A DNA stretch of 61,688 bases from Candidatus Yanofskybacteria bacterium (GTDB lineage: Bacteria > Patescibacteriota > Minisyncoccia > 2-02-FULL-40-12 > IGHO2-12-FULL-4). The position numbers and the translations under genes were made by a program. The notes below the pieces were generated by a model, which saw nothing but the letters and a program-made list of their open reading frames with translations, was not told the origin of the DNA and made no database searches. Shown piece by piece: positions 8,020-60,872 of this stretch (the first letter of the stretch is position 1; each line of letters starts with the position of its first letter). The stretch is taken from positions 1 through 61,688 of the forward strand of contig JACPNK010000003.1 of assembly GCA_016185525.1 (NCBI GenBank). Reading direction: 5' to 3'.

Positions 8020-8056
8020 AACGTTCTACAAGATCCGTTAAGGTAAATTTTTATCT

Positions 8057-11747: not shown

Positions 11748-11749
11748 AT

Positions 11750-13140: not shown

Positions 13141-13143
13141 TAA

Positions 13144-14343: not shown

Positions 14344-14345
14344 CT

Positions 14346-17300: not shown

Positions 17301-17310
17301 TGGCTAGGTA
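17283..17310. repeat. Heptanucleotide tandem tract CTAGCGA-CTAGTGG-CTAGTGG-CTAGGTA
   Basis: Four 7-nt units span the stop codon (17298-17300) of the transferase gene and end 6 nt before the TTG start at 17317. Confidence 0.8.
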
Positions 17311-17316
17311 AAAATT

Positions 17317-21137: not shown

Positions 21138-21180
21138 CCCGGCACTTTCTAAAAAGAAAGGAAAGTGCCGGGTGATTTTT
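21138..21180. terminator. Bidirectional rho-independent terminator
   Basis: An 11-bp stem, CCCGGCACTTT (21138-21148) with AAAGTGCCGGG (21162-21172). T-runs lie on both strands (TGATTTTT on plus, TTTTAATTT on minus). It sits between convergent genes. Confidence 0.8.
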
Positions 21181-25557: not shown

Positions 25558-25606
25558 TTTTTAATTATACATAACTCGGCCAGAGTTGTCTAGGTAGACG
25601 TAAAAA

Positions 25607-43123: not shown

Positions 43124-45223
43124 CTATAAACTTTTGCCCAAGCTTTTCAAAAATATCCGCGCATCAGGCTCAAAAGACGGGTCAACTTCAACAGCTTTGC
43201 GGGCCATAATTACAGCTTCATCAATCCTGCCCAAATTAGCGTAAGCAGTTGCAAGTGAAGCGTAATTTTGAGGTTCTTTTGGATTTATTTTTATCATTTG
43301 CTCATATATCCAAGCAAGACGTTCGAAGTTGCTGGTCTTCAGATATGCGTTAATTAATCTCTGGAAATCAACTTCGCGCGGGGTGTAAAAATTTTTACTA
43401 TTTAAAGCTTTCTCCAAGTCCTCCGCTCCGCTCAAATCCCCGCTTTCAATTTTAGCCGCTCCAAGATAAGCGTGAGATACTCCAACATCGGGATTTAATT
43501 CAACCGCCCTTTGAAAATACTTAATAGCGTTAGGATAATCCTTTTTGTTGAGATATGCCTGGGCCAGTTCGTAGTATGTCCTGACAAAAGTCGGAGAAAG
43601 TTCAAGCGCTTTCATGGAGTACGCCAACGCTATATCATTGTATGACGACTTGGGATCGTCTTTGCCAAGCATTATATTCAACCGCGAACCGTAAAGATAA
43701 GGAAGATAGTCAATCTTATTTTCTGCAATATTTTTGTCAACTTCAGCTATAGTAAACTCATATGCTCTCCAGATATTTCCTTCTTTAACGCTGGGCCCCC
43801 CCGGTCCAACCAAATACTGGGCAAGCCTGTGCCGATATTCATACTTGCCCGGCACATCGTAAGTAAGGGCTTCTTTATATTTTTGAATGGAACCATTGAC
43901 ATCTCCCGCCCAACCTTTGACAATCGCTCTCGTGGTCGCATAGTTGGCTTTAGTCGGTAAAATATTCGTCTCATAGATCAGCCACGGAATAAATATAATC
44001 AAAAACGCCGCCAGTATATTGATAAACGCTTTGTTTTTAATAATAGCCCCTCCGGCTTTATTAGTATCGCCCGGTACAAGCCACGATATGAAACCCATGA
44101 TGGTAAAGAAAATAATAAAGTTAGCCGAAGTGTCAAAAATAAAAGAGTTATGAATTATATAAGCGATAACCAGCGGCATGAAACCAATTCCATAAATCGC
44201 AAGTTCAGAATTTTTTAACCATCTGCGCAGATAAGCAAATACCGCCGCAAAAATACCGAGATAAGACAATAAACCGACCAAACCCATAGTTGCAAGAATC
44301 TCAACAAACATGTTGTGCGCTCTGTCAAACAGCGTCTCTGACCCGGGACCGACAAAAAACTTTGGGTTGAAGTACTTTGAGAACGGAATATTAAAATTTT
44401 CCGGTCCCCATCCTAAAAATATTGTTTTGGGATTCTCAACCCAGCCCTTTAGTCCCGCTTCCCAAGCCCAAAAACGCGTCTCGGTTGTTTGTGATTTTAA
44501 GGAGAGGTCGGTTATTCTGCTCAAATACCTTGAATTTTCAATAAACTTAGCATTTCCAAAAAGAAGCGAGAAGACAATAAAAAGAACCGCCAACCCTACT
44601 AAGTAATTAAAGGCCAACCGTCCGAAACGGGATTTTTTATATCTGCCCCACAAAAACGCAAAAACCGTGATACCAACCGCATAAGCCAAGACAGACCCTC
44701 TGACCGCTGTCATTAAAGTGGCAACGGAAGTAATAGCAAAAGCAAACAAATAAAACAGCTTCTGATTTTTGGTATTTTGCGGCTGAAAAAATAATGTGAG
44801 AGATAAAAATACTGCAAGAAGCTGGGTGCCGGCAAATAAAGCCGCGTTACCGATGGTACCGAATATCCTTGCCCGCCCCCCGGAACCAAGAAAGAATTCA
44901 ATGTCCGTTTTTTGAAAAAAGCCATAAAACGCCGACAGTATCCCGGCAAAAATAGTCGTATTTAAAAGATTCCGCCAGTGTTCTTTTTTGGTTAATACGG
45001 AGGTTAGGATTATGTAAAACAAAAAATAGTGCCAGAAAGTCCAAAGACCGCCCATTCTTTCAAGCCCCAGAATTTCTACCAGAGACCTGAAAATGACGAC
45101 TTTCCCAAAATGAAAAGGGGAAATAAGATCCCTAAAAACAAGAAGGGGCACAAGCGCCGTAAGATATATCCCGAAACGAAGGAATTTTACCAAGTTGGAC
45201 TCTTTGTTAGCAAATTTTGACAT
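43124..45223 (-). CDS. O-antigen ligase/polymerase-family (Wzy_C-like) membrane protein fused to C-terminal TPR repeats
   Basis: Polytopic N-terminal half with RAHNMFVEILATMGLVGLL (the HN...E..G motif of WaaL/Wzy_C). The C-terminal ~250 aa contain TPR-like repeats (AQAYLNKKDYPNAIKYFQRAVELNP). Confidence 0.7.
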   Translation of the reverse strand: MSKFANKESNLVKFLRFGIYLTALVPLLVFRDLISPFHFGKVVIFRSLVEILGLERMGGLWTFWHYFLFYIILTSVLTKKEHWRNLLNTTIFAGILSAFYGFFQKTDIEFFLGSGGRARIFGTIGNAALFAGTQLLAVFLSLTLFFQPQNTKNQKLFYLFAFAITSVATLMTAVRGSVLAYAVGITVFAFLWGRYKKSRFGRLAFNYLVGLAVLFIVFSLLFGNAKFIENSRYLSRITDLSLKSQTTETRFWAWEAGLKGWVENPKTIFLGWGPENFNIPFSKYFNPKFFVGPGSETLFDRAHNMFVEILATMGLVGLLSYLGIFAAVFAYLRRWLKNSELAIYGIGFMPLVIAYIIHNSFIFDTSANFIIFFTIMGFISWLVPGDTNKAGGAIIKNKAFINILAAFLIIFIPWLIYETNILPTKANYATTRAIVKGWAGDVNGSIQKYKEALTYDVPGKYEYRHRLAQYLVGPGGPSVKEGNIWRAYEFTIAEVDKNIAENKIDYLPYLYGSRLNIMLGKDDPKSSYNDIALAYSMKALELSPTFVRTYYELAQAYLNKKDYPNAIKYFQRAVELNPDVGVSHAYLGAAKIESGDLSGAEDLEKALNSKNFYTPREVDFQRLINAYLKTSNFERLAWIYEQMIKINPKEPQNYASLATAYANLGRIDEAVIMARKAVEVDPSFEPDARIFLKSLGKSL

Positions 45224-45226
45224 TGG

Positions 45227-46660
45227 TTATATAGTACCAGAAAATGGAGAAACTTCCACTTTATAAATTAATCCGGCCGCATCGTCAGAGATGTAAAGAT
45301 TTCCGTCATTGTTAAACTTTAAGTCAACCGGCCGGCCATAAATTTGGTTACTGGTTACTGGTTGCTGGTTGCTGGTTGACAGCCATCCCGAAATAAAGTC
45401 AAACGGTTCTTGCGACAAAACTTTTCCGTTTTTGTCCAAATCGTACCTGACTACCTTGTAACCAGCCGGCTCGCTTCTATTCCATGAACCGTGGAGCGCC
45501 ACCAGCAAATCCCCTTCCCACTCTTTTGGCCAACTACGGCCAGGCGGAATAAAAGCAAGCCCAAGCGGCGCCGAATGAGCCGGAATTTCAATAACCGGCG
45601 GCTCTGTTTCCGCGCAATTTCGCGGAATGTCTATTCGCTCAAATTTGTCCGGGTTAAATTTTTTGTCCGTAACTTTGTCGCCGTAACAAAATGGCCAGCC
45701 ATACCGGCGAGCCCCAAATTTGTGTTCCGGACCGGCAACTTTGACAATGTTAATCTCGTCCGGCGGCAAATTATCCCCCAAATTATCTCTTCCCATTTCC
45801 GTTGCCCATATTTCTTTTGTGACCGGATGAAAAACAAAGAAAACAGAATTTCTTAAACCACCGGCAAATTCCGCCGTATAACTGCCCTCGGGGTCCGACT
45901 CCAGTATCGCCGCTCTTTTCCAGGTACTTTCTTCGCAAACATCGCAAGACGAACCGACACTGATATAAAGTTTGGTGTCAACTTGGGTATTGACAACTTT
46001 TAAACCCTTGATTATCTGGCTAGTGCGGAAGTTTGGTCCAAAGGCAATGGTTCGGGTAAAATGCCCGCCTGCCGGCGAGGCAGGCTGGCCTCCGTCTGGA
46101 AGTTTTGTAATTTGTTCGCCTGCAATGTCAACTAATTTTCCGGCATTAACATCATAGCGATAACGAACCACTTGCTGCGTTTCAGCAATGTATAAATAAA
46201 TAATTCCGGTTGAGGATACTTGTCCTGAGCCGTTCGGCACTGAGCTCACGGCCGAAGTGCTTGCCGAAGGATAAAAGTCTAGTCCGTGAGGCGACTTCAA
46301 ACCCTCAATCAAAACACGCTTGTTTTCAAAACCACCTCTTGCCCCGTGATCGCCTTGCGATTTTACGGGGTCTAAAATACTAACCTTACCTGCTTTTGTC
46401 TCGCTGACAAGCATCCTGCCTTTGGCGTCAAACAAAATAACTCGCGGATTGTCTAAGTCTTTAGCAACAACAGAAATTTCAAATCCCTCCGGGATATCTA
46501 AAAAAGACAACTCTCCGCCATTCTCCGAAACCGTCTTCGGCTCTTTAAGTTGCGGAATATTATAGCCAATTAGCTTTTTAACCAAACTAAAATCAGATAA
46601 AAACAGATAAACAACCGAGACGACTACAAACAAAACAACGCCAAAAATGGCTTTTTTCAT
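45227..46660 (-). CDS. Membrane-anchored PQQ-type glucose/sorbosone dehydrogenase-like beta-propeller
   Basis: N-terminal TM anchor. LKSPHGLDF, VGSSCDVCEE, MGRDNLGDNLPPDEIN and YGWPFCYG are typical of the soluble sugar dehydrogenase family. Confidence 0.65.
   Translation of the reverse strand: MKKAIFGVVLFVVVSVVYLFLSDFSLVKKLIGYNIPQLKEPKTVSENGGELSFLDIPEGFEISVVAKDLDNPRVILFDAKGRMLVSETKAGKVSILDPVKSQGDHGARGGFENKRVLIEGLKSPHGLDFYPSASTSAVSSVPNGSGQVSSTGIIYLYIAETQQVVRYRYDVNAGKLVDIAGEQITKLPDGGQPASPAGGHFTRTIAFGPNFRTSQIIKGLKVVNTQVDTKLYISVGSSCDVCEESTWKRAAILESDPEGSYTAEFAGGLRNSVFFVFHPVTKEIWATEMGRDNLGDNLPPDEINIVKVAGPEHKFGARRYGWPFCYGDKVTDKKFNPDKFERIDIPRNCAETEPPVIEIPAHSAPLGLAFIPPGRSWPKEWEGDLLVALHGSWNRSEPAGYKVVRYDLDKNGKVLSQEPFDFISGWLSTSNQQPVTSNQIYGRPVDLKFNNDGNLYISDDAAGLIYKVEVSPFSGTI
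45345..45379. repeat. Heptanucleotide tract (TGGTTAC)x2-(TGGTTGC)x2-TGGTTGA in CDS
   Basis: Five 7-nt units (35 nt) encode STSNQQPVTSNQ near the C-terminus of the dehydrogenase-like protein. Confidence 0.9.
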
Positions 46661-46690
46661 AAGTTTAATATAGCAAAAGTTTACTGAAAA

Positions 46691-48340
46691 TCAATTGGGA
46701 ATTAGCACCCTTAAGGCTTGGCGGGTTATCTCGCCGAAGAAACCGGAGGTTGGTTTAACTCCGTATTTTTCTTGAAGTCGTTTAACCGCATCACGAGTGA
46801 TATTGCCGAAATAGCCGGTCAGTAAATTGGCTGGATAACTAACTTGGTCCACCAGCAATGCTTGTAATCTTTTGACATCATCGCCTCTAAGACCAAGGTA
46901 TAGGTCTCTGGAAAAATCAAAACTAACAGGGGTAGAATTACAAATACCATTACCGCATCCAAAAGGACAAATATAAACACTTCGATATACTTTGCCGTCG
47001 TTGCCGCAATAGTACTCAAAAATGTAATCGGTCTGAGAACTATCAAGACAAGCATCATAATGAATAGAATTTGCTCCTAAACTAGGATCTGACCGATCAC
47101 TGGATATATTTGAGTTCTCTCCCACTATGATGCTTGGCGAACCATTAGCGGGCGGTCCCTTCGCGACCCCCCTTATAAAATAATCCAAACCCCCATCTGT
47201 ATCAGTGCAAGCTGATGCTGTTGGAGTTGGGATAGGAGTGGGAGTGGGTGTTGGAGTTGGAGTAGAACTAGAACTAATATAGGTTACAATATTAGATTCC
47301 GTTCCATTAGAATAAGAACATCCGTAAAAGTCAGCGTTACCACATCCATAAACTTTATAACGGTAAGTGAAGCCGGACTCGAGATTGAGTTTGTTGTCAT
47401 CATAACCAAAACCATCGACTTGGGACCAGATTTGATAGGCATTACCATTGACACTCCGATAAAGATGGTATTTTAGAGGGGTTCCTGACCAAGTAACCAT
47501 AATTTTATCAGCGACCAGAGAAGCAGTTACCGAGGTTGGCGGGAGTGGACTTGAAGTTGAAGTTGGTGTGGAAGAATATGTCGGTGTGGGGGCGGGTGTC
47601 GGTGTCGGTGTCGGTGTAGAACTTGCCGGTTGAATAGGAATTGCCGACACTGCCGGAATAGCCGGTTGAATAGAAGAAGTTGGTGTCGGAGTCGGAGAAA
47701 GCGATGTTGAAGCTGGACCGGGAGAAACAGTTGGAGAGACTAAGGGCAGAGAGTGTGAGGCTGGAACCGCCGGAATAGCGGGTATAGCCGGCATGACAGG
47801 AGTAGCCGGGGTAGCAGGAGTAATTGGCGCAACTCTATGGTATTGCGGCACTTCTTTGACCGACTTTAATTCTTGGCCTCTTTTGTACCACTTGAATTCC
47901 TTGTCGTTGATACAGAATACCTTTTTAAAGAAGCTGGGGTCGTCTTGGACAGCTTGGTCTCCGGAAGTGTTGACCCAGCGGAGTTCTCCGCTGTCTTCGT
48001 TGTCTGATTGAAAGCCGTAGACTTTAGGGTCGTTCTTTTCACAGTTGCGAAAGAGGCCGACGACAGGGAAGGCGTCTCGGACTTCGGGGGTTACTAATTT
48101 AATGTTGGCAAAACCTCCTAGGTGGGTGTAGAACTTAAATATTTCGGGATTTAAGAATAATCTCTTGTAGCCATGCTCGTTGATGATATAGACATCAGGG
48201 TCATCGGAGAAGATGGCGGAGATGAGGTCGCCTTCTTTAAGACCGTAGTCGGAGGGCTTGGAAGCGTAAGAGAACTTAGATAAACCCAAAATTAAAACTG
48301 CCAAAAATACAAAAATTAATAGTATAGAATATTTTTTCAC
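46691..48340 (-). CDS. Secreted wall-associated protein: conserved N-terminal domain, Pro/Thr linkers, C-terminal PG_binding_1 domain
   Basis: Signal anchor, the shared domain (DYGLKEGDLISAIFSDDPDVYIINEHGYKRLFLNPEIFKFY...), long PT/PA tracts and a C-terminal LRGDDVKRLQALL...YFGNITRDAVKRLQ peptidoglycan-binding motif. GTG start. Confidence 0.75.
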   Translation of the reverse strand: MKKYSILLIFVFLAVLILGLSKFSYASKPSDYGLKEGDLISAIFSDDPDVYIINEHGYKRLFLNPEIFKFYTHLGGFANIKLVTPEVRDAFPVVGLFRNCEKNDPKVYGFQSDNEDSGELRWVNTSGDQAVQDDPSFFKKVFCINDKEFKWYKRGQELKSVKEVPQYHRVAPITPATPATPVMPAIPAIPAVPASHSLPLVSPTVSPGPASTSLSPTPTPTSSIQPAIPAVSAIPIQPASSTPTPTPTPAPTPTYSSTPTSTSSPLPPTSVTASLVADKIMVTWSGTPLKYHLYRSVNGNAYQIWSQVDGFGYDDNKLNLESGFTYRYKVYGCGNADFYGCSYSNGTESNIVTYISSSSTPTPTPTPTPIPTPTASACTDTDGGLDYFIRGVAKGPPANGSPSIIVGENSNISSDRSDPSLGANSIHYDACLDSSQTDYIFEYYCGNDGKVYRSVYICPFGCGNGICNSTPVSFDFSRDLYLGLRGDDVKRLQALLVDQVSYPANLLTGYFGNITRDAVKRLQEKYGVKPTSGFFGEITRQALRVLIPN

Positions 48341-50254
48341 TAGTTGGAGATTAGCGCCCTTAACGCTCTGCGGGTTATCTCACCGAAGAAACCGGAAATT
48401 GGTTTAACTGCGTATTTCTCCTGGAGTTTTTTGACCGCTTCACGGGTGATATTGCCGAAATAGCCGGTAAGAAGATTGGCTGGATAACTGACTTCGTTTA
48501 CCAAGAGAGCTTGGAGACGGACGACGTCGTTACCCCGAGAACCGAGGTAAAGATCTCTGGAAAAGTTGTCAAAACTTACACTGGAAGTAGTGGGAGTGGG
48601 GGTTGGTGTTGGCTCAACAAGATAGAAAGTGTAATCACTTGAGTAAAACACTTCTCCGGATTGGGTTGTAGCCTTGGCCCTGACATGATAAGTGGTATTA
48701 AAATTTAAATACTGACCCAAATAAGTTTCACCAATATAATAACCGCCATCGGCTGGGTAATTCCCTTTTGCTGCTTCGGATGACCCCCAATTATTCCAAC
48801 CGGAGGTACCGCCATAACTCGTTGTAGTGCCGTACTCGTAAATCACTATTACCTGCTTATTTGAGTGATAGGCCACCCAAACTCGTTTTTGACTAGGCTG
48901 TAAGTCAATAGATAAGGTTATAGTTCCAACGACTGTCGGAGTTGGTGTCGGGGTCGGCGTTGGGGTGGGAGTAGCAGAACCCGCCGCAGTCACATTAAGA
49001 GAAAGCACAATGCTGTTGTAAGGCCATGAACCGCGCTCTTGCGCCCCGGTTGAAGTCACTCTGACAATCGTGTTGTTGTAAGTTTTAATTTGTTGTTGTA
49101 AGTTTTAATTTGACTGTTTGCTGTTGTTGGCGAACAGGTTACTGTAACTGTCTGGGGACTGGCTGGATTAATTAAAACTGAACTTGGCGAAACGGTGCAA
49201 AAAGAAAGAGGCGTGCTTATATCAAGCACTTCAACTTTAAGCAAATCATTGCCAGCCCAGTTGCCCGAAACAGCATTGCCATCATAAGTAGTGCTTATGC
49301 GCATGCTTGTTGAGGCATTGGAATTTTGAGGAATCGTCAAAGAAGAAGGCGTAACCGAGAGAAAATAACCGCCATAATATGCATATGTTGATGTTGATGT
49401 TGATGTGGGTGTCGGTGTTGGGGTCGGGTCGTCGGAGTGGGGGTCGGCGAAAAAGATAGAGATGAGGTTGGCGATGGTGTAACCGTAAATGACGGCGATG
49501 AAGTCGGTGACGGGGAAATAGTTACTAATGGAGTAGCGGTAGGAATCATCGGCGTCGGAGTCGGAGCAAAACATGACCCAACCGTATCTCCATGATCCAA
49601 ATGGGCTTTTAAGGCCGAGGCGTTGACACTGATAGTCTGAAACGCGCCAGCACTATTGGAAGGATGATGACAGATAACCGCTTGGCCGATATCTTTAAAC
49701 TCTGCTTTGGATTCCAGCTTTTTTTCAGTTGAAACTCTTTTCAGTTCTTTTATCCTTTCATATTTGGGTACTTCTTTGACGGTATTCAAGGCCGTTTGGC
49801 TTTTAGGATACCAGTTGAACTCTTTGCGGTTGATACAAAAAACTTTCTTGAAAAAATTGGGGTCGTCTTGGACAGCCTGGTCGCCTGAAGTATTGATCCA
49901 CTTCAGTTGGCCGGAATCTTCGCCTTCTACATCAACTCCGTATACTTTTTCGTCATTATCTTCGCAATTCCGGAAAAGACCCGAAGTGGGAAAGGAATCT
50001 ACCACTTCTTGAGTAACCAATTTAACACTGAAAAACCCTCCCAAATGAGTGTAGAACTTGAATATCTCAGGGTTGAGGAATAATCTCTTGTAGCCTTGTT
50101 CGTTGATGATATAGACATCGGGGTCATCGGAGAAGATGGCGGAGATGAGGTCGCCTTCTTTAAGACCATAGTCGGAGGGGGAGGTAGCTGAAACTGTGGA
50201 AAAATTAAAAAAGATTACCAAAAAAAGCCCAAGGAAAAACCAAGATTTATTCAT
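48340..50254 (-). pseudogene. Disrupted paralog of the wall-associated protein gene (three ORF fragments)
   Basis: ORFs 49337..50254, 49056..49574 and 48340..49059 form one gene. Deleting one copy of the 20-bp duplication (49071-49110) rejoins IKTYNN to TIVRVTSTGAQERGSW. A 1-nt shift near 49426-49428 rejoins the PT linker. Confidence 0.65.
49071..49110. repeat. Perfect 20-bp tandem duplication (TGTTGTTGTAAGTTTTAATT x2)
   Basis: 49071-49090 equals 49091-49110 exactly. The length is not a multiple of 3, so the duplication shifts the frame. Confidence 0.95.
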
Positions 50255-50320
50255 ATGCTTTTATTCTACTCTCTCTACAGACGAAAAAAAATGAGTTATC
50301 AACAAACAAGGTTAGGTTTT

Positions 50321-51919: not shown

Positions 51920-51989
51920 GCTGATATCTTATATCAAACATAAAAGACCCGCAAATGGGTCTTTTGTGTTTGAATTTTTAAATTTTAAG

Positions 51990-53216: not shown

Positions 53217-53245
53217 TATGAATAGGTAGTTAAAAATTTTTATTT

Positions 53246-53587
53246 TTATTGTATGCTCTGAATCGTTTTGACAACTTGGGAATCAGGTCTCATATTTTCC
53301 CAGAATAAGACTTGCTTTTTACTTATTGTCATCTGGTCTTTGGGTCCATGCGGCTCTATCGCCCCCAACTTAACTAGTTGGCCGGCGCCGTTGTCATCTA
53401 TCTTGACATAGTAAACATCAGATAAAATCAAGTAATCCTGATTGGCATTTTTTAAGCGTCCGAGTCGGTCAAAAGAGATGACCCAATAGCGCCGGCAAGA
53501 AATCCGATTATAACCAGACCAACTATAACAATAGGAAAGTTCTTGCTCCGAGTCATGGGCGTCATTCTCTAAATTAATTAATGGCAT
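53246..53587 (-). CDS. Hypothetical protein (113 aa)
   Basis: The ORF overlaps the upstream gene end by 10 nt (coupled arrangement). No recognisable motif. Confidence 0.45.
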   Translation of the reverse strand: MPLINLENDAHDSEQELSYCYSWSGYNRISCRRYWVISFDRLGRLKNANQDYLILSDVYYVKIDDNGAGQLVKLGAIEPHGPKDQMTISKKQVLFWENMRPDSQVVKTIQSIQ

Positions 53588-54534
53588 CGAACGGTGCTAA
53601 GAGTCGGTGTAGCGACACCCTGGTAAAAGCGCATATAAATCCATGCCCCTGTCGTAGATTTAAGTTGGAAACAAGTGCCCGTGGTCGCGGAATCATTGCC
53701 GCCGAAGTAAAAACTGGCTGTGCCCGTGCCGGGACCGACAAACCGCGCGGTATAACCTGCCCCGCCGGAAGCGGAAGCAGTAGTGGTGCCGACAGTTAGT
53801 TGGCTGGTTAATATCAAATCGCCGACAAACGAATGGGAAGCGGCCGTATCAAGTATAAATCTGCCCGATGCTTGAAGATTACCGGCAATAGAAGCCTTGC
53901 CGTCAACCTCTAAAGCCCCTGATATAAGAAGGTCGTTGGCAGAATCAAGTTCTCCGGTAGTACCAGTTGTATTGGTTCCAAATCTTGAATAAGCAACCGA
54001 GGCGCCGCCCGCAACTTGAATAGAATTCGAGGTCAGAAAGTAACCAGCAGAAGCCGTACTCCCAACCTCAAGACCTCTGTCAAATTGAGCCGAAGCATCA
54101 ACCTCCAGACGGCCTGTTATTAAGAGGTCGTTGGAGCTGCTTCTTAGAAAACTGTTGGAAGTAGTGTTGGTTCCAATCCTGTTATAGGCGGCAGAAGCCA
54201 CTCCACCGATTTGAATGGTATTTGCGGTCATTAAGTACGATGCCGAAGCGGTACCTTGAACCTCAAATACGGTAGACGGCGCGCCGCGAACACCTATTCT
54301 AGAGTTTGTGCTGTCGCCAAAAAAGTAGCTGGTGCCGGCGGCGTTTTGAAATTGGACGGATGTGGCAGAGTTAGAAGCGGGATTTACAAGAAAAGTGCCG
54401 GTTGTACTTAAATTAGTTCCGATCGTGCTGGCCGCATTTGCGGCGAGAGCAAAGACAAAAACAAAAGAAAAGACTACAAAAACTGTAGCCATTGTGTAGA
54501 CAATCGACCCCAAGAGACCTTTAGGTTTATTCAT
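53578..54534 (-). CDS. Secreted repeat protein (two ~65-aa internal repeats)
   Basis: N-terminal TM/signal. Tandem repeats VQGTASASYLMTANTIQIGGVASAAYNRIGTNTT...NDLLITGRLEVD and VGSTASAGYFLTSNSIQVAGGASVAYSRFGTNTT...NDLLISGALEVD. Confidence 0.6.
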   Translation of the reverse strand: MNKPKGLLGSIVYTMATVFVVFSFVFVFALAANAASTIGTNLSTTGTFLVNPASNSATSVQFQNAAGTSYFFGDSTNSRIGVRGAPSTVFEVQGTASASYLMTANTIQIGGVASAAYNRIGTNTTSNSFLRSSSNDLLITGRLEVDASAQFDRGLEVGSTASAGYFLTSNSIQVAGGASVAYSRFGTNTTGTTGELDSANDLLISGALEVDGKASIAGNLQASGRFILDTAASHSFVGDLILTSQLTVGTTTASASGGAGYTARFVGPGTGTASFYFGGNDSATTGTCFQLKSTTGAWIYMRFYQGVATPTLSTVRCH

Positions 54535-54610
54535 GTTACTTTTTATTTTTCCAACATTCCGGCCATTTTTTAGTAAGGACCGAAATCTTGAATATCAACA
54601 ATTAACTCTA

Positions 54611-54640
54611 ATTATAAAATAGCTTCTATGGGTAGCGCAA
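54611..54640 (-). promoter_or_regulatory. Putative promoter
   Basis: On the minus strand: TTGCGC (54640-54635), 18-nt spacer, TATAAT (54616-54611), upstream of the gene starting at 54534. Confidence 0.35.
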
Positions 54641-54660
54641 GAGCCAATTTGTGGATAACT

Positions 54661-54703
54661 TAAGTGTTTGTCCAAAAGTGTAACGATTGGTTACAAACAC
54701 TTA
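54661..54703 (-). other. 11-bp perfect hairpin immediately after a stop codon
   Basis: TAAGTGTTTGT (54661-54671) pairs with ACAAACACTTA (54693-54703) across a 21-nt loop. No U-tract, so either a non-canonical terminator or an mRNA-stability element. Confidence 0.5.
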
Positions 54704-56527
54704 CTACTTAGATAATGTTTGGACTTCAGAAATCTCTAACATTTTCTGAATCTCCGGCGCTGTGTTTCCCAGCTCCATCGCCCTTTTCAGATAAAACACG
54801 GCCGTTTTGTAGTCGCCTTTGATAAAATAAGCCGTGCCGGCCAAAGCGCTTATGTCGGGATTATTTAAATCGTCACCGAGATAATAAGCCACGGTATTGA
54901 TAGCTTCTTCCGGCTTATTAAGAGCTATCTGGGTATAGGCGTACCTGACCACATATTCGGTAACGGGGTAAAATTCTATTACTTTTTTAAACATAGCTCC
55001 CGCCTCTTCCAATCGGTTTTGTTTAGCGTAAAGTTCCGCTAAATTTATCTGCGCATTGACAGCATCGGGATTAAGCTCCAGCGACCTTAAATATTTTTCT
55101 TCGGCCAGCTTCTGATTGCCTTCATGGTCGGCAATTATGCCCCAGAGATTTTGAACACGAGAGTTGTCTTCATAAATACCCAGAGCAATGTTGAGCTGTT
55201 CTTTGGCTTCATCCCACTCATCATACTTTACATGCACCGCCGCCATAGCCATTCTGGCGATTAAACTGTTGGGCGCTTCTTTGAGCGTCGCCGTAAACAA
55301 AGTCCTTGCGTCGTACCAGTCCCTGTTGCGTATTACGGTTCTGGCGCTGAAAAATACTATTATCAAAGCCAAAAAAACATATACAACCTTTTTGCTGATT
55401 TTTTCAGATAACTTAAGCAACAGATAAGAAAAAAGGAGAAGAAAGCCAAAGGAAGGAAAATACATCAGACGCTCGCCCATTATCGTGCCGACCGGTTTAA
55501 TCAAGTTGGAAATTATCAAGTAAGGCGCCAAAAAGACAAGGGCCCCGAATGCGCCAAGCGGCTGGCGTATTCGTTTGGAAATCAAAAGCCACAACAAAAA
55601 GACAAAAAAACCGGCGCCAATCAGAAAAGTCGGGTCGGTAAAACTGCTGACCGGCGAGATGGCGCTGTATGAGTAATCCGCCGAAAGGCGGACCGGCCAG
55701 ACAAGCCGCTCAAGATACATATAAAGCACTTTGAAAGCCGTAAGAATTCTCTCTTTAAGCGGCAGAAATTTTAAATGGTTTCCGACAATAGTCGTGGAGA
55801 CATCGCCGAAAAAATAAGCGCCTAGGGCTTTATAACGCAATAAGGCATAAATAAAAATTGCCGGCGCAAAAACAAAAGTTCTTTTTATAGCCGGAAAAAA
55901 CCTGTTCCTTAACAACGCCCAGTCAATATAAAAAATAATCGGCAAAACCATCAAGGCAACCTCTTTGCTAAGCAAAGCAAAAAGAAAGGCGACAGAGCTT
56001 AGTAGTGAGTCTTTTTTAGTAAAGAAGTAAATAGCGGCTAGAGACCAGAAAAACGCCAGAAGCTCGGCCCGTCCGACAAGTGAAGTAACCGCTTCGGTAT
56101 GGATCGGATGAACCAAAAACAAAAGAAAGGTCGCATATGACAAAAACCTGTTTTTAAACAAGCGGTTAACCAGCCAAAAAAGAAGAAAAGAGTTAAAAGC
56201 ATGGATGATTATATTCACCACGCGAAAACCGGCCGCCTCCTGAAAACTCGTGGCGGAAACGGGAAGAATCGCGTCATTTATAAAATGATTAACGGCGTAA
56301 GAAGCCATTGTAAATGGCCGGAAGAGGCCTAGTTTTGCCAAAAGGTGGTAAGGAGAAACAAACAAATTAAAGAAGTTGGATGAATCTTTCAGGTCGCCCC
56401 TATTTTGAATAACCGCCACGTCATCAAAAGTGAAATCGTTAAAAATGCCGTTGCCGAAAACCAAGAAAGACAAAACAAGAGCGACCACAAACACAAAAAT
56501 CAGCTCGTTGTTTCTAACAAAATTCAT
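54704..56527 (-). CDS. TMTC-like GT-C membrane glycosyltransferase with C-terminal TPR repeats
   Basis: FTFDDVAVIQN, FRPFTMASYAVNHF, HAFNSFLLFWLV and HPIHTEAVTSLVGRAELLA, followed by a TPR block. The ATG at 56527 is preferred over the TTG at 56536. Confidence 0.7.
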   Translation of the reverse strand: MNFVRNNELIFVFVVALVLSFLVFGNGIFNDFTFDDVAVIQNRGDLKDSSNFFNLFVSPYHLLAKLGLFRPFTMASYAVNHFINDAILPVSATSFQEAAGFRVVNIIIHAFNSFLLFWLVNRLFKNRFLSYATFLLFLVHPIHTEAVTSLVGRAELLAFFWSLAAIYFFTKKDSLLSSVAFLFALLSKEVALMVLPIIFYIDWALLRNRFFPAIKRTFVFAPAIFIYALLRYKALGAYFFGDVSTTIVGNHLKFLPLKERILTAFKVLYMYLERLVWPVRLSADYSYSAISPVSSFTDPTFLIGAGFFVFLLWLLISKRIRQPLGAFGALVFLAPYLIISNLIKPVGTIMGERLMYFPSFGFLLLFSYLLLKLSEKISKKVVYVFLALIIVFFSARTVIRNRDWYDARTLFTATLKEAPNSLIARMAMAAVHVKYDEWDEAKEQLNIALGIYEDNSRVQNLWGIIADHEGNQKLAEEKYLRSLELNPDAVNAQINLAELYAKQNRLEEAGAMFKKVIEFYPVTEYVVRYAYTQIALNKPEEAINTVAYYLGDDLNNPDISALAGTAYFIKGDYKTAVFYLKRAMELGNTAPEIQKMLEISEVQTLSK

Positions 56528-56540
56528 AAAAAACAACTTG

Positions 56541-56563
56541 ATTAGGTTAATTAGTATAATTAG
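56541..56563. repeat. ATTAG pentamer x3 at 9-bp spacing in an intergenic region
   Basis: ATTAG at 56541, 56550 and 56559. The 12-mer ATTAGGTTAATT is identical to the one at 40020-40031. Confidence 0.75.
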
Positions 56564-56572
56564 AATAATTTT

Positions 56573-58405
56573 TTATTCGACGGTTAACTGTTGAATAAGC
56601 TGTTGTATCAACCTTCCTGTCTCAAGATCAACACTGGAATATTTCAACCCTTCTTTTAAATCGGCAATCGCTTTTTCTTTGTTATTTAAAGCGAGGTAAA
56701 CAAGCGCGGAGTTGTAATAGACACGAGGATTGCCAGGAAGAAGCATTTTTAATTTTTCCATATTCGCCGCCGCTTGAACTAAATCGCCCTGTTGGGCGTA
56801 GATAACCGCCAAATCTTGATATGGATAGAAAAAGCTAGGGTCAATTTCTATGGCCTTGTTAAACTCGGCAATCGCGCCCTTAATATCGCCTCGCGACCGT
56901 AGTATGCTTCCGATGTTAAAATGTGGCTGGGCAAAAATATCACCGGCTTCAACCGCTTTTCTGTAATAAACTTCGGCTTGTTCTTTATCGCCCTGGTTGA
57001 AATACTGATTGCCCAGATTGTTATTTATTCTGGCATTGTCCGGTTCATATTCTAAAATATTTTTGTAAAACTCAACCGGTTTGCCCCAAACAATATTGCG
57101 CTGAATGGATTGGTAGGCAAAAAAGGAGAAATAGGCAATGAGACCAATGACAAATGACAAATGACAAATGACAAATTTTTTACTTCTAAAATACTCAAAA
57201 AGTTTGACCAGATAGAAAGAAACTATCAGCCAGAAACCGACCATCGGCAGATAAAGCCAGTGTTCGTACATTAAAGCGTTAATCGGCGTAATTCCGGAGA
57301 CTGGAGCAAGGGCAACGAAGAACCAAAGCGCTCCCAAAAGCCAAATCCTGACATCGGATGCCGGAACGACATCCGATGTCCTTAAATTCTTATAAAACCT
57401 GTATGCCAAACGCCAAACGCCAAACGCCAACAACAATGCTATCAGCCACACCGGCCATTGAAATAACGAAGTGTATATCTTAACGCTTCGCTCCATGTGA
57501 AGCCCGACGGGAGCAACAAGGAGTTTTAAGTATTCCCAAAGTATCGGCAGAAAGGTAAAGATCCTAACATGCAAATTTTCAGAATAAACATTTTGCTGGG
57601 AATAAAAATTAAGCGTGTTCTGAAAATTTAAAACCGTGAGCCGTAAAATACCGTAAACGATAACCACCGCAAAATACGGCCATGTTTTTAAAAGTCCTTG
57701 TTTTAATGATTTTATTAAGGTCCGACCAACTGTTGGACGTTGAACGTCCCACAGTTGGATATAGAAAAAAACGAGAGCCAGAAATGGGAAAACTATAGCC
57801 GTTTCACGGCTTAAAAGGCTTAAAACCAAAGAGCCTATAATTAGTAGACGGTAACCAAAAGACGACGTTTTGACATCGGATGTCCGCTGGACATCCGATG
57901 TCGTTAATTCTGACTTGCAGAAAAACAATAAACCTAAGAGCATAAACATCGCCGCCAAAGCATCCCCCCTTCCGGAAATGTATGTTATCGCTTCGGTTTG
58001 CAGAGGGTGGATTAAGAAAAACAAAGCAGTCAAAAAAGCAAACGGGTCTTTTTTGAAAGCCCGCCTTATAAGCCAAAAAACGAGAACAGAGTTAAATATA
58101 TGTATCGCATTGCTGGTCAAGTGGTAAAGCAACGGTTTCACTCCGGATATAATATAGTTGAGAGTAAATGTAAAAAACAGGAACGGCCGGTAGTAGTTGC
58201 TCTTCAGCCCTATCCCCGCCAGAACGTCGTGAGTAAACCAAAATTTGACATTATCCCAGCTCACCGAATGAACAAAACTATTATTGATTATCCAGTCGTC
58301 GTCGTCCCAAAATAACCCGTTGTTTATGTTGAACGAGTACACAAAACCGCCGGCAATAATCAGAGCAATCACCGCAAGTCCTGTTTTATTTTTCAGTAAA
58401 TTCAT
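56573..58405 (-). CDS. TMTC-like GT-C membrane glycosyltransferase with C-terminal TPR repeats (paralog)
   Basis: LFWDDDDWIINN, YYRPFLFFTFTLNY, HIFNSVLVFWLI and HPLQTEAITYISGRGDALA, followed by a TPR block. Contains four in-frame repeat elements. Confidence 0.7.
   Translation of the reverse strand: MNLLKNKTGLAVIALIIAGGFVYSFNINNGLFWDDDDWIINNSFVHSVSWDNVKFWFTHDVLAGIGLKSNYYRPFLFFTFTLNYIISGVKPLLYHLTSNAIHIFNSVLVFWLIRRAFKKDPFAFLTALFFLIHPLQTEAITYISGRGDALAAMFMLLGLLFFCKSELTTSDVQRTSDVKTSSFGYRLLIIGSLVLSLLSRETAIVFPFLALVFFYIQLWDVQRPTVGRTLIKSLKQGLLKTWPYFAVVIVYGILRLTVLNFQNTLNFYSQQNVYSENLHVRIFTFLPILWEYLKLLVAPVGLHMERSVKIYTSLFQWPVWLIALLLAFGVWRLAYRFYKNLRTSDVVPASDVRIWLLGALWFFVALAPVSGITPINALMYEHWLYLPMVGFWLIVSFYLVKLFEYFRSKKFVICHLSFVIGLIAYFSFFAYQSIQRNIVWGKPVEFYKNILEYEPDNARINNNLGNQYFNQGDKEQAEVYYRKAVEAGDIFAQPHFNIGSILRSRGDIKGAIAEFNKAIEIDPSFFYPYQDLAVIYAQQGDLVQAAANMEKLKMLLPGNPRVYYNSALVYLALNNKEKAIADLKEGLKYSSVDLETGRLIQQLIQQLTVE
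57146..57176. repeat. (AATGACA)x4 heptanucleotide tract in CDS
   Basis: Four perfect units at 57146-57173 plus a partial unit. Encodes FVICHLSFVIG within a TM segment. Confidence 0.9.
57350..57380. repeat. GACATC-palindrome element, variant copy
   Basis: GACATCGGATG-CCGGAAC-GACATCCGATGTC. Encodes RTSDVVPASDV in frame. Confidence 0.85.
57405..57431. repeat. (GCCAAAC)x3 heptanucleotide tract in CDS
   Basis: Three perfect units at 57405-57425 plus GCCAAC. Encodes part of LLLAFGVWRLAY. Confidence 0.9.
57871..57909. repeat. GACATC-palindrome element, copy 1 (39-nt identity with copy 2)
   Basis: TGACATCGGATGTCC-GCT-GGACATCCGATGTCGTTAATT, a 14-bp stem with a 3-nt loop (57872-57902). Each arm is itself a GACATC-N-GATGTC palindrome. 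Encodes TTSDVQRTSDV. Confidence 0.9.
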
Positions 58406-60089
58406 ATTTGTATTTGGAAAAAATTGGTTTGTTTTTTGGAATATTTTTAACTAAAATAATAGCACTATTATTGATAAATACCACCTTCCAATCAGAATCC
58501 CGAACTATATTTTTTAAGAACGCCTGCCCCCACGGCGTAGCGTCGGTGTGTCCGAAAAAGACAAAGTTAATGCCGTATTTTTCTGAAAGCTCTTTCCATT
58601 TCTCTTTACTTTCCTGCATCGGTTTATAAATTTCGCTGAAAAACTTAACCGAGTAGGCTTCCGGTCTATTATCCACGAAAACCCTAAAGGGGTCAGGTAC
58701 CTTTTCGGCAGGGTACCTGACCCCTTCAATCTGCCATATCAAATAACCGCCGATGTCAAAATTATTGAACATCGGCCCCTCAATTTTATTTTCCTTAACA
58801 AAGTTAACGGCTTTTTCCAGTTCGCCGGGAACTGAAAAACCAAAAGCCTTGGCAGACCTTATCGCTTTGTAATACCCGCCGCCGGAAACCCAAAAAATCA
58901 TAAAAATGAGAAACCCGGCAACTGCTATCTTGAACACACCGCTTAAATATCTCCTGACATCGGATGTCCGCTGGACATCCGATGTCGTTAATTTAAAAAC
59001 ATCACCCAACAGCATCGTCAAGACCGGAAAAGAAACCAAAGCATATAGAGGCAGATTGCGAAGCATCTTAAAACCGGCATAAATTGAAAAGGCTAAAATT
59101 AAAATTTCAAAAATTCTTTGTCTCGTTTTTCTAAAAGTTGTGACCAGCAAAATTGCCGCCACTGCCACGGAAAGTTTGAAAACAAAAATTGTCAGTTTAA
59201 AGCCGAAGAAATTTGACAGAAAAGCGAGCGTCTGATTTTCAACAATGCTATAGCCGTACTCTTTTAAAATTGTAAAGGGAGCTAAAGCGCCTTGAAGACC
59301 GTTGGGGTTGGCTAGAGTAGCAACAAAAACTAGAGATAAGATAAGGACAACTTTTTTAAGCGATAAATCTACAAACGGGAGAATATGTCTCTTTCTTGCG
59401 CCGGACTCTTCGCCGTCGAACTGCGAAAGAGACATATTCTCCCGTTTGTTTTTACGATTTATCGCTTGATCAATTAAAAAACTCAACACCAAAAACGGTC
59501 CGATGAAAAAATAAATATGTAAATTTACCCAAAATAGCTCGGCTAAGGGCAAAAACCACAACAGATTTGAGGTTCGATCTCCGTATTTCTCATTCGAGGA
59601 GGTCCGACCTCCGTATTTCTCTCTGAACAAAACAAACAAAAAGAAAGCTAAAATGGCAAAACTGAAAATTTCGGGTCTGACTTCGGTGCGCTCAATAAAT
59701 ATAAAAATTGAAAGCAAAAAAGAAATTGCGATCGGCCAAAAGGTGGCATATTTTTTGACGGTAAAAAAAAGCAGTAAAAAAGCGGCCAAAACAAAAAAGA
59801 CTTTAAGCAAAATTAAGCCGGTAAAACCAAACCAGCCGTAAATTCCGTAAAATATGACCTCGCTTAACCAATGATGGTTTGCGAACGGAAAATCCGGTTC
59901 GGTAAAAGAAAAAAAATTTACCCTCGGCACTTCCTTTGTCTGCCAGATAACTTCCCCCAACTTTAAGTGCCGCCCGATGTCCTGCCCGATGGAGTCAAAG
60001 CTGTGAATCAGAAAAACAGCCAGAAGGCTAAATAATAATACAAAAACACAAAGCTCTAATTTATTCCTGTTTAGATTTGAGAAACCCAC
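58386..60089 (-). CDS. Polytopic membrane protein, unclassified (possible GT-C-like)
   Basis: At least 12 hydrophobic helices and a soluble C-terminal domain. GTG start. Overlaps the downstream paralog gene by 20 nt. Carries three in-frame repeat insertions. Confidence 0.6.
   Translation of the reverse strand: MGFSNLNRNKLELCVFVLLFSLLAVFLIHSFDSIGQDIGRHLKLGEVIWQTKEVPRVNFFSFTEPDFPFANHHWLSEVIFYGIYGWFGFTGLILLKVFFVLAAFLLLFFTVKKYATFWPIAISFLLSIFIFIERTEVRPEIFSFAILAFFLFVLFREKYGGRTSSNEKYGDRTSNLLWFLPLAELFWVNLHIYFFIGPFLVLSFLIDQAINRKNKRENMSLSQFDGEESGARKRHILPFVDLSLKKVVLILSLVFVATLANPNGLQGALAPFTILKEYGYSIVENQTLAFLSNFFGFKLTIFVFKLSVAVAAILLVTTFRKTRQRIFEILILAFSIYAGFKMLRNLPLYALVSFPVLTMLLGDVFKLTTSDVQRTSDVRRYLSGVFKIAVAGFLIFMIFWVSGGGYYKAIRSAKAFGFSVPGELEKAVNFVKENKIEGPMFNNFDIGGYLIWQIEGVRYPAEKVPDPFRVFVDNRPEAYSVKFFSEIYKPMQESKEKWKELSEKYGINFVFFGHTDATPWGQAFLKNIVRDSDWKVVFINNSAIILVKNIPKNKPIFSKYKYEFTEK
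58955..58993. repeat. GACATC-palindrome element, copy 2
   Basis: The 39-mer is identical to 57871-57909. It encodes KLTTSDVQRTSDVRR in a different protein. Confidence 0.9.
59358..59467. repeat. 110-bp imperfect inverted-repeat element inside a CDS (MITE/RPE-like)
   Basis: Perfect 23-bp arms at 59373-59395 / 59425-59447. Outer 12-bp arms AAGCGATAAATC (59358-59369) / GATTTATCGCTT (59456-59467). 29-nt loop. Read through in frame. Confidence 0.85.
59569..59628. repeat. 30-nt tandem direct repeat with GAGGTyCGAyCTC palindromic cores
   Basis: GAGGTTCGATCTCCGTATTTCTC (from 59569) and GAGGTCCGACCTCCGTATTTCTC (from 59599). Encodes EKYGGRTSSN / EKYGDRTSNL. Confidence 0.85.
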
Positions 60090-60106
60090 TCAGCAAGAAA
60101 TGGCTA

Positions 60107-60174
60107 CATTGTTATATTGTTACATTGTTAGCAATATAGTCATTCAACAGTGTAACAATTTAGCAATGTAACAA
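60107..60174. repeat. Intergenic octamer repeats (CATTGTTA-TATTGTTA-CATTGTTA) with downstream inverted copies
   Basis: Three 8-mers at 60107-60130. TTGTTACATTG (60117-60127) pairs with CAATGTAACAA (60164-60174). The nested ATTGTTA/TAACAAT pair gives alternative stems. Confidence 0.8.
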
Positions 60175-60179
60175 CTTAC

Positions 60180-60848: not shown

Positions 60849-60872
60849 AATGCTGAATAATATCAAAAATTA

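Follow-up and report, generated by a model that had tools for sequence, protein, structure and literature searches.

Genes and features of the locus

We analysed a stretch of 61,688 nucleotides (hereafter the window) from Candidatus Yanofskybacteria, an uncultured, ultra-small bacterium of groundwater type (Parcubacteria), in which genes for membrane glycosyltransferases (GTs) of the GT-C fold are interleaved with genes for secreted proteins. The best homologues came from Candidatus Yanofskybacteria, at 80-91% identity. From 43124 to 61688 all genes lie on the minus strand and are co-directional, with gaps that are short or replaced by overlaps (Table 1). A first-pass annotation had read five membrane proteins here as GT-C-type transferases. 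All five are encoded by intact minus-strand open reading frames (ORFs), and their class was borne out by Pfam, by an AlphaFold2 model of the protein at 58386-60089 searched with Foldseek, and by the literature (PMC10920833): four are GT-C_A-like and the fifth, which carries Wzy_C, is of the GT-C_B kind. A sixth transferase had been overlooked, namely the GT39-like protein at 25607-27331, beside an ArnC/PgfS-like GT2.

Table 1. Positions of the features discussed, with the evidence for each; positions are those of the window unless a related locus (L number) is named. TM, transmembrane; TPR, tetratricopeptide repeat; PT and PA, Pro/Thr and Pro/Ala; S/T/P/G, Ser/Thr/Pro/Gly.
Feature	Position	Strand	Evidence
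Two-gene module: ArnC/PgfS/GtrB-type GT2 (24598-25557) and GT39/PMT_2-like GT-C (25607-27331)	24598-27331	-	
Soluble DPM1/AglJ-like GT2	40043-40753	-	Glycos_transf_2 2.5e-33
Wzy_C/TPR protein	43124-45223	-	Pfam Wzy_C 1.7e-17 (64 bits; cut-off 31.7), then C-terminal TPR repeats
Secreted beta-propeller-like protein (GSDH/TrAA12-like)	45227-46660	-	Pfam GSDH 1.1e-8; TrAA12 and DUF7133 weaker
Signal anchor, DOM (residues ~27-170), long PT/PA tracts, middle domains, C-terminal PG_binding_1	46691-48340	-	PG_binding_1 3.7e-9
Broken paralogue of 46691-48340 (DOM, PT tracts, PG_binding_1)	48340-50254	-	Three overlapping ORFs, three-frame translation
Perfect 20-nucleotide tandem duplication (repeat D11)	49071-49110		At second frameshift of 48340-50254
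PMT/PMT_2-type GT-C_A (GT39/GT83-like), 532 residues	50321-51919	-	PMT_2 4e-13, 50.3 bits (cut-off 26.1); PMT 6.7e-10, 39.4 bits (cut-off 22.7)
Terminator-like hairpin and T-run	51942-51965	-	Between DOM/SH3 gene and PMT-like gene
Signal anchor, beta-rich N-domain, 64-residue S/T/P/G linker, DOM (residues ~190-335), SH3_3	51990-53216	-	SH3_3 1.9e-9
Small conserved membrane-anchored protein, 133-135 residues in relatives	53246-53700	-	
p318, secreted Gly/Thr/Ala/Ser-rich repeat protein, two C-terminal Cys	53578-54534	-	Translation; orthologues in relatives
TMTC-like GT-C_A with C-terminal TPR, copy a	54704-56536	-	TMTC_DUF1736 30.9 bits (cut-off 27) and TPR families
TMTC-like GT-C_A with C-terminal TPR, copy b	56573-58405	-	TPR families; paralogue of copy a
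39-nucleotide palindromic element, three copies (TGACATCGGATGTCCGCTGGACATCCGATGTCGTTAATT)	57349-57387, 57871-57909, 58955-58993		In frame within two GT-C genes
GTCx, unannotated GT-C_A	58386-60089	-	AlphaFold2 and Foldseek; ~11 TM helices and ~150-residue extracytoplasmic alpha/beta domain
p228, membrane-anchored, Ser/Thr/Pro-rich stalk and conserved ~140-residue C-terminal domain	60180-60866	-	
3' part of secreted-protein gene running off the window	60873-61688	-	ORF 60873-61556; frame open to 61688
S-layer-like gene in relatives	L001 3802-7482; L002 5345-9031; L005 4475-8152; L006 6217-9900		

A large unannotated GT-C family

The first-pass annotation had left the protein at 58386-60089, here called GTCx, as a transferase candidate of no assigned class, and neither Pfam nor NCBIfam gave a match to it, even at E<=5. 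Its structure placed it among the GT-C enzymes. The AlphaFold2 model was confident (predicted local distance difference test score, pLDDT, 83; predicted template modelling score, pTM, 0.86), and the top 19 Foldseek matches in the PDB were all GT-C enzymes, among them DPY19 (E 1.9e-8), yeast and human STT3 (TM score <=0.58), AglB, AftA, ArnT, PglB, ALG9, and AftB; the best of these matches, DPY19 and STT3, are to protein-modifying enzymes. The C-terminal domain gave a weak Foldseek match to the globular domain of AglB. In an alignment of 38 sequences, D37 was near-invariant ('QDIGRH', just after TM helix 1), and R134, R138-P-E140, N189/H191, FNNFDxG, and FxDxRPEAY were invariant.

The family is also large. 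We counted 1796 GTCx homologues among the candidates scored, many of them with C-terminal TPRs; at E<=1e-3 the relatives formed 12,062 clusters at 50% identity, and at 1e-30 they formed 803. Relatives occur in at least 592 GTDB species representatives, essentially all from the Candidate Phyla Radiation (CPR)/Patescibacteria, and the named homologues were all from Parcubacteria/Yanofskybacteria or from metagenome-assembled genomes (MAGs) of an unclassified 'bacterium'. Because the model is confident, its structural matches are exclusively GT-C enzymes, and the family is of this size, GTCx is, as judged from the predicted fold, a real, large, and unannotated GT-C_A family. Some GTCx-bearing MAG records (L036, L041, L042, L048, L056, and others) are titled 'uncultured Gammaproteobacteria', 'Pseudomonadales', or 'Candidatus Saccharibacteria'; as their gene content is of the CPR type, these titles look like mislabelled taxonomy.

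In sequence, GTCx is unrelated both to the GT-C enzymes matched by Foldseek and to the remaining transferases of the locus. PDB sequence searches with the whole membrane proteins of the locus returned nothing or TPR matches only, a GTCx family profile (A1) was overwhelmed by the TPR tails of the homologues, and a trimmed profile of the GTCx C-terminal domain (A5) had no PDB match. Profile comparison with hhalign detected no relation of GTCx to the TMTC-like, PMT-like, or Wzy_C proteins (probabilities of 0.5%, 0.8%, and 0.2%, respectively). We considered whether FNNFDxGG and DxRPE correspond to the WWDYG and DK motifs of oligosaccharyltransferases, and the empty A5 search left this unsupported at the sequence level. 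Membership of the STT3/AglB/PglB family (GT66) was likewise rejected, given the lack of sequence similarity, the presence of FNNFDxGG and not WWDYG, and about 11 rather than 13 TM helices.

Transferases of recognisable families

The two TMTC-like proteins are paralogues over their full length (27% identity, E 9e-37). Only copy a exceeds the Pfam cut-off for TMTC_DUF1736; copy b has no match of its own to that model, TPRs alone being detected, and orthologues of the pair in two related loci (L002, L003) carry PF08409. On visual comparison of the translations alone with the catalytic and ligand-binding motifs listed for TMTCs (PMC7801869), both copies fit the set, which comprises DD after TM helix 1, a YRP-type motif, HP(I/L)xTEA, and K/R-E-T. 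The corresponding segments are FTFDDVAV, LFRPF, VHPIHTEAV, and SKEVA in copy a, and FWDDDDW, NYYRPF, IHPLQTEAI, and SRETA in copy b. The TMTC-like and PMT-like profiles matched one another (hhalign probability 64%, E 6e-5).

The PMT-like protein at 50321-51919 exceeds the Pfam cut-offs for both PMT and PMT_2 and has an acidic pair after TM helix 1 ('PATDEIIHL', TDEIIH). Neither a MIR domain nor a PMT_4TMC region was matched in it (Pfam, E<=0.01), and we therefore filed it as a PMT_2-clan GT-C and not as a bona fide PMT. Its orthologues are syntenic in relatives. The overlooked protein at 25607-27331 is polytopic, with 'YYQDEYRW' after TM helix 1. It has no Pfam match of its own even at E<=5, and BLASTP found no match between it and the PMT-like protein. 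Its homologues (42-75% identity) carry PF13231 and PF02366 and bear the NCBI name 'glycosyltransferase family 39 protein', so that it is a putative GT39-like GT-C, classified through its homologues alone.

The protein at 43124-45223 carries the Wzy_C domain of O-antigen-ligase/PglL-type enzymes. Since O-antigen ligases, whose donors are lipid-diphosphate-linked oligosaccharides, are now counted in the GT-C fold as subclass GT-C_B (PMC10920833), we find it defensible to call this protein GT-C-type, of the GT-C_B kind. Wzy_C alone does not tell ligase, polymerase, and O-oligosaccharyltransferase (O-OTase) apart (PMC3643930), and we regard the protein as a candidate en-bloc oligosaccharide transferase. 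It shares 64% identity with a 748-residue orthologue in L004, relative to which it has an in-frame deletion of 48 residues near the N-terminus, amounting to about two TM helices; we placed this deletion at 44900-45223. Its orthologues sit at the far end of the syntenic block. The GSDH-like protein encoded next to it has a hydrophobic segment at its N-terminus and is a cluster member kept in relatives.

Two GT2 genes of the window had been proposed to make polyprenyl-phosphate sugars. Their families were confirmed, and both have the features of polyprenyl-phosphate sugar synthases of the ArnC/GtrB/PgfS/DPM1 kind. The product of 24598-25557 matched the NCBIfam model of PgfS almost end to end (4.4e-72, spanning positions 3-305 of its 308; the score of 243 bits lies below the equivalog cut-off of 500) and that of ArnC (4.8e-55, also below its cut-off), and it has two predicted C-terminal TM helices, as in polyprenyl-phosphate sugar synthases of the GtrB/ArnC type. 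The product of 40043-40753 has no TM helix, and its best NCBIfam matches were AglJ (4.5e-28), a Dol-P-hexose transferase, and PpgS, none of which reached its cut-off. As the scores fall short of the equivalog cut-offs, these matches do not specify the sugar of either GT2. We consider 40043-40753 a candidate polyprenyl-phosphate monosaccharide synthase feeding the GT-C enzymes. In 18 loci GTCx has a DPM1-like GT2 in its vicinity, at about 0-3 kb in 17 of them (within 50 nucleotides in L029 and L061) and at 7.3 kb in L028. This recurrent adjacency points to a lipid-phosphate monosaccharide, not a lipid-diphosphate oligosaccharide, as the probable donor of GTCx.

Secreted proteins with a common domain

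Among the 55 ORFs of the window, tracts rich in Ser, Thr, Pro, and Ala were found only in 46691-48340 (residues 201-277 and 352-382), in the fragments of 48340-50254, and in 51990-53216 (residues 124-187). The claim that secreted proteins with such linkers lie among the transferases thus stood for these genes; in p228, which had been listed with them, the Ser/Thr/Pro tract is weaker. All tract-bearing proteins have N-terminal hydrophobic anchors.

The first-pass annotation had missed that the linker proteins have a domain in common, which also heads an S-layer-like protein in relatives. Alignment delimited this domain, here called DOM, to about 140 residues with the consensus ...YGLKEGDxISA...DPDVYIxNxxGYKRLFLNPxIFxFYxHLGGF...FFKKVFCIN.... 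It has no Pfam model, and its 219 matches were confined to CPR MAGs. Its predicted structure was confident (pLDDT 91), and a Foldseek search of the PDB returned nothing below E 0.001; the best match, to an EccB periplasmic repeat (E 0.085, TM score 0.3), was too weak to use. An N-x-S/T sequon in DOM ('WVNTSG') was considered as an N-glycosylation site and dropped, since it was not conserved in a wider alignment (A4). Near GTCx, a Ser/Thr/Pro tract was present in 26 of 34 DOM proteins (76%), usually abutting DOM, compared with 93 of 1047 (9%) among all ORFs of at least 150 residues.

The linker of 51990-53216 is kept by its orthologues in L001, L002, and L004 and in L008-L043; we regard this protein as the conserved acceptor candidate. 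We found no Pfam match for p318, a possible acceptor. The gene that runs off the window at 61688 has an orthologue in L001 that encodes 412 residues with a PT linker.

In relatives, a secreted S-layer-like protein of about 1225-1250 residues with an N-terminal DOM is encoded upstream of the cluster. The composition of the L001 protein is S-layer-like, with 12% Thr, 11% Ala, 11% Gly, 9% Ser, 8% Asp, and almost no Cys or His. It had no relative in Pfam, and a PDB sequence search was empty. By analogy with these loci, the S-layer-like gene would be expected just past position 61688. We regard this DOM-headed protein of about 1230 residues as a candidate for an S-layer protein, or for the major surface protein, of Parcubacteria.

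Conservation of the gene neighbourhood

We compared 80 species-representative loci around GTCx. The close subset (n=16) comprised those with a GTCx identity of at least 39% for which 15 kb or more of surrounding sequence was available; as no flank extended beyond 10 kb, all neighbour counts are lower bounds. In the Yanofskybacteria loci L001-L003 the order is p228, GTCx, TMTC-like, TMTC-like, p318, the 133-residue protein, DOM/SH3_3, PMT-like, GSDH-like propeller, and Wzy_C/TPR. A 117-residue gene of the 23S_rRNA_IVP family stands between p228 and GTCx in L001 (9607-9960), a position that is empty in the window. In more distant Parcubacteria (L004-L006, 42-45% identity) the gene set is kept and rearranged. 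The S-layer-like DOM protein, p228, GTCx, TMTC-like, GSDH-like, and Wzy_C genes stay together even after inversions and reshuffling (L020-L030, L047-L057).

All 16 close loci have a TMTC-like gene near GTCx. A DOM protein was found in 13 and p228 also in 13, nearly always directly upstream of GTCx; a GSDH-like gene was found in nine, p318 together with p113 in eight, a PMT-like gene in seven, and a Wzy_C gene in six. The gene at 53246-53700 co-occurs with p318 and the DOM/SH3 gene in eight of the 16. The clustering of transferase and secreted-protein genes is not due to chance, as GTCx is surrounded by this set in other species too. The proposed synteny between enzymes and linker proteins held for 51990-53216 and 60180-60866, whose orthologues are kept, and not for 46691-48340 and 48340-50254, which are absent in relatives. 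We looked for both computational outcomes that would have told against a glycosylation cluster, namely membrane proteins outside the GT-C class and a lack of conserved synteny, and found neither.

Frameshifts and palindromic elements

The stretch 48340-50254 had been taken for a single protein. It is not one ORF; it consists of three fragments separated by two frameshifts, one of which falls in a PT-coding repeat. The second is caused by the 20-nucleotide duplication at 49071-49110, and dropping one copy restores a continuous frame. Repeats D1, D4, and D5 in the DNA connect this stretch with 46691-48340. We read it as a pseudogene or, alternatively, as a product of mis-assembly. The TM anchor of 53246-53587 likewise lies in another frame.

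The 39-nucleotide palindromic element encodes loop peptides of the 'TSDVQRTSDV' type, and two of its three copies lie in TMTC-like copy b. It is also present in L001, L002, L007, L008, L010-L012, and L018, and in relatives, too, it is in frame. Because its footprint there sits in different genes (p228, GTCx, TMTC-like, and a 1000-residue ORF), it behaves, as far as sequence comparison can tell, like a small palindromic element that is mobile and can be accommodated within genes. We take it to be reminiscent of the palindromic elements of Rickettsia. Inside GTCx we also found a perfect 25-nucleotide inverted repeat with a 29-nucleotide spacer and a 23-nucleotide direct repeat (59371-59449 and 59569-59621). 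These map to low-confidence loops of the model (residues ~160-175 and 215-240) and look like further in-frame insertions.

The surrounding glycan island

The remainder of the window is a glycan island with two NeuB-type synthases, a cytidylyltransferase, a DegT aminotransferase, RmlD-like reductases, epimerases, a carbamoyltransferase, a radical-SAM/B12 enzyme, and YdjC. Glycosyltransferases are represented there by about 12 GT4 and several GT2 genes. A pathway of the nonulosonic-acid type occupies 5797-14786 and 16398-19805. It includes the DegT aminotransferase, a NeuB and CTP_transf_3 fusion, a second NeuB with SAF, a HisH/HisF-like amidotransferase/cyclase, and a GNAT protein; an MptE/Maf-like protein, a methyltransferase, and the carbamoyltransferase are encoded alongside. 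This gene content suggests a modified cell-surface sugar resembling pseudaminic or legionaminic acid, and the MptE-like protein, which is of the Maf type, may itself glycosylate proteins. The B12-binding radical-SAM enzyme (21179-22693), whose neighbours are a GT4 gene, YdjC, and the ArnC-like GT2, possibly modifies a sugar by C-methylation or similar. Scans of the whole window for tRNAs and Rfam families returned no match.

Proposed role of the locus and alternative explanations

We think that the region is most likely the core of a locus for cell-surface protein glycosylation and surface-layer biogenesis in Candidatus Yanofskybacteria. For the full model, O-glycosylation of surface and S-layer proteins from lipid-phosphate sugars, we see the case for and against as evenly balanced. 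Judging from their families, the cytoplasmic GT2s (40043-40753 and 24598-25557) would load single sugars onto polyprenyl phosphate, and the lipid-linked sugars would then be flipped to the outer face of the membrane. There the four to five enzymes with the fold or family of GT-C_A (50321-51919, 54704-56536, 56573-58405, GTCx at 58386-60089, and 25607-27331) would move the sugars to hydroxyls of secreted envelope proteins, with extracytoplasmic TPR or alpha/beta domains presumably picking the protein substrates. The Wzy_C/TPR protein (43124-45223) may transfer, en bloc, an oligosaccharide that is assembled on polyprenyl diphosphate by enzymes from the upstream part of the window, which is rich in GT4 genes and makes nonulosonic acids. 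The acceptors would be the DOM proteins with Ser/Thr/Pro linkers, p228, and p318, and in relatives the DOM-headed S-layer-like protein. The content of the glycan island (nucleotide sugars, nonulosonic acids, about 12 GT4 genes) matches that of S-layer and general O-glycosylation loci.

The enzymes need not share a target. PMT and TMTC enzymes had both been expected to act on Ser/Thr/Pro linkers. This agrees with the literature for PMTs, which act on Ser/Thr-rich secreted substrates (PMC7759382, PMC5673659), and not for TMTCs, which modify cadherins, a distinct substrate class (PMC11292533). Given this difference, the TMTC-like proteins and GTCx may, by analogy, target folded domains (DOM or the beta-rich body of the S-layer-like protein) rather than linkers, and the PMT-like protein at 50321-51919 is the best candidate for the enzyme acting on disordered Ser/Thr/Pro linkers. 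A narrower proposal, in which GTCx together with p228 and the DPM1-like GT2 carries out a domain-specific glycosylation of the DOM-headed S-layer-like protein, of an undescribed kind, seems unlikely to us; DOM would then be a recognition element or an envelope anchor of CPR surface layers.

Several observations weigh against protein O-glycosylation as the role of the locus. Substrate assignment is guilt by association throughout, and this applies to every model considered here. Lipids and glycans, too, are substrates of enzymes of the PMT_2 clan and of other GT-C enzymes, such as ArnT, Emb/Aft, and GT136 (PMC11127046), and since Ser/Thr/Pro tracts go with DOM wherever it is found, they may be plain spacers. 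Neither an initiating phosphoglycosyltransferase nor a Wzx flippase was found among the window ORFs of at least 120 residues that were scanned. The topology of the TMTC-like pair is a further difficulty: TMTC proteins are expected to have 11 TM helices, an odd number that puts the TPRs on the non-cytoplasmic side, and crude hydropathy gave 10 and 12 with no clear positive-inside signal. The two PG_binding_1 linker genes, which are the richest in PT tracts, are missing between the PMT-like and GSDH-like genes in L001-L003 and are, by this comparison, a window-specific insertion. Beyond about 39% GTCx identity the neighbourhood is mostly dissolved, with a TMTC-like gene in seven and DOM in seven of 32 distant loci, and the window copy itself has several frameshifts and the Wzy_C deletion.

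Part of this evidence would fit a machine for wall glycopolymers, an explanation that we consider less probable, yet a serious rival. Outside the membrane, the GT-C enzymes would here use polyprenyl-phosphate sugars to decorate a lipoglycan or secondary cell-wall polysaccharide or to lengthen its chain, and the Wzy_C/TPR protein would polymerise or ligate the polymer; DOM would bind it as SLH and CWB2 do, with the PT tracts as spacers. Three-component systems in which a GT-C enzyme and a lipid-phosphate-sugar synthase glycosylate glycans after polymerisation are widespread (PMC11127046), ArnT, AftA, and AftB are among the Foldseek matches of GTCx, and Wzy_C spans ligases, polymerases, and O-OTases (PMC10920833, PMC3643930). 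The N-terminal place of DOM in the S-layer-like protein and its combination with PG_binding_1 and SH3_3 follow the pattern of an anchoring domain, and the locus is embedded in a large gene island of polysaccharide type. Yet proteins are the substrates of the nearest characterised relatives that three enzymes here have (PMT, TMTC, and DPY19/STT3-like), the acceptor of the bacterial GT-C-TPR fusion TfpW is a protein whereas the glycan-modifying GT136 uses a carbohydrate-binding module, and the window showed neither an exporter of the Wzx or ABC type nor a ligase of the LCP type.

It is improbable, in our estimate, that the genes are neighbours merely because envelope genes cluster in tiny genomes, with the GT-C enzymes performing general glycosylation or lipid modification and the PT-linker proteins not being particular targets. 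The lineage-specific insertion of the PG_binding_1 linker genes, the presence of at least one internal terminator in the cluster, the restriction of strong synteny to one clade, and the fact that a general O-glycosylation system need not be linked to the genes of its substrates (PMC3643930) are all consistent with such an island, but the persistence of the gene set through inversions and reshuffling and the nearly fixed place of p228 immediately upstream of GTCx argue for a closer connection. Still less probable is that this copy is decaying or mis-assembled, so that it is partly non-functional or in error and our conclusions hold for the family and not for this genome. The two frameshifts of 48340-50254 (one by duplication), the shifted anchor of 53246-53587, the Wzy_C deletion, and the palindromic insertions might be read as decay. 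All five transferase ORFs, however, are intact and of full length, the Wzy_C deletion is in frame, and the insertions occupy low-confidence loops and are in frame in relatives as well.

The proposed glycosylation of surface proteins would matter beyond this genome. The CPR makes up a large share of bacterial diversity and lives attached to other cells, so the surface is central to its biology, and how CPR/Patescibacteria construct their envelopes has been called unclear (PMC5220378). The locus provides a conserved and testable list of parts, made up of the putative main protein of the surface, a newly recognised shared domain, four to five transferases for lipid-linked sugars, a Wzy_C/TPR enzyme, and donor synthases. 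GTCx is among the largest GT-C families with neither profile nor function, and the substrates of bacterial TMTC-like enzymes could inform domain-specific O-glycosylation of the eukaryotic TMTC/TMEM260 type.

Comparison with known systems

Four things are new: the combination of four to five distinct GT-C families and a Wzy_C/TPR enzyme in one conserved CPR locus, a GT-C family that is very large and yet has no annotation, a defined gene context for bacterial TMTC-like enzymes, and a CPR-specific domain common to a putative S-layer protein and to linker proteins. The suggestion that such a machine is possibly undescribed went too far, as TfpW and the streptococcal GtrB/PgtC2 and Pgf systems are precedents in kind; actinobacterial PMT and O-OTases of the PglL/WsaB type encoded beside their targets are also known.

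The TfpW protein of P. aeruginosa is a GT-C enzyme with a periplasmic TPR domain that O-glycosylates an adjacently encoded pilin (bioRxiv 10.1101/2020.04.19.049825). In this pilin O-arabinofuranosyltransferase about 11 TM helices, with DDx in the first outer loop, are followed by the TPR domain at the C-terminus; its gene neighbours pilA, which encodes the substrate, and its donor is a polyprenyl-phosphate sugar (bioRxiv 10.1101/2020.04.19.049825). The products of both TMTC-like genes and many GTCx homologues appear to share this architecture. While TfpW is one enzyme for one pilin in a proteobacterium, the locus described here has four to five GT-C families and wall proteins that are not pilins.

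With the eukaryotic protein O-mannosyltransferases TMTC1-4 (GT105) the TMTC-like pair shares the DUF1736 loop, the DD, YRP, HPxHTE, and KET-type motifs, and C-terminal TPRs; it differs in being bacterial and in that copy b falls under the Pfam threshold. The PMT-like protein resembles actinobacterial and eukaryotic PMTs (GT39), which are likewise protein O-mannosyltransferases, in its PMT and PMT_2 profile matches and in the acidic 'DE' after TM helix 1. Unlike them it has no MIR or PMT_4TMC match, and with its 532 residues it is nearer to the broad PMT_2/ArnT-like clan, so that its acceptor is not readable from family membership. For GTCx, the C-mannosyltransferase DPY19 and the oligosaccharyltransferases STT3/AglB/PglB are the best structural matches (E 1.9e-8 to 1e-6, TM score <=0.58), although there is no sequence similarity, about 11 TM helices face 13, and WWDYG is lacking.

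The streptococcal GtrB/PgtC2 and Pgf systems O-glycosylate Ser/Thr-rich disordered extracytoplasmic regions of envelope proteins (bioRxiv 10.1101/2024.05.05.592596; PMC5856776). GtrB/PgtC2 and PgfS/PgfM1/PgfE/PgfM2 resemble the locus in pairing a GT2 synthase with a GT-C enzyme, as in the full-length PgfS match of 24598-25557 with its adjoining GT-C gene; their GT-C partners belong to other families and have no TPR fusions. Finally, enzymes of the PglL/PilO/WsaB kind and slg or general O-glycosylation loci (for example, in Tannerella) offer the likeness of a Wzy_C enzyme beside candidate glycoprotein genes, with nucleotide sugars including nonulosonic acids and many GTs (PMC3643930, PMC6120980, PMC5420450). 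PglL genes adjoin their targets in some cases (PMC3643930). Those enzymes have no TPR fusion, and the protein at 43124-45223 may instead have a WaaL-like or Wzy-like role.

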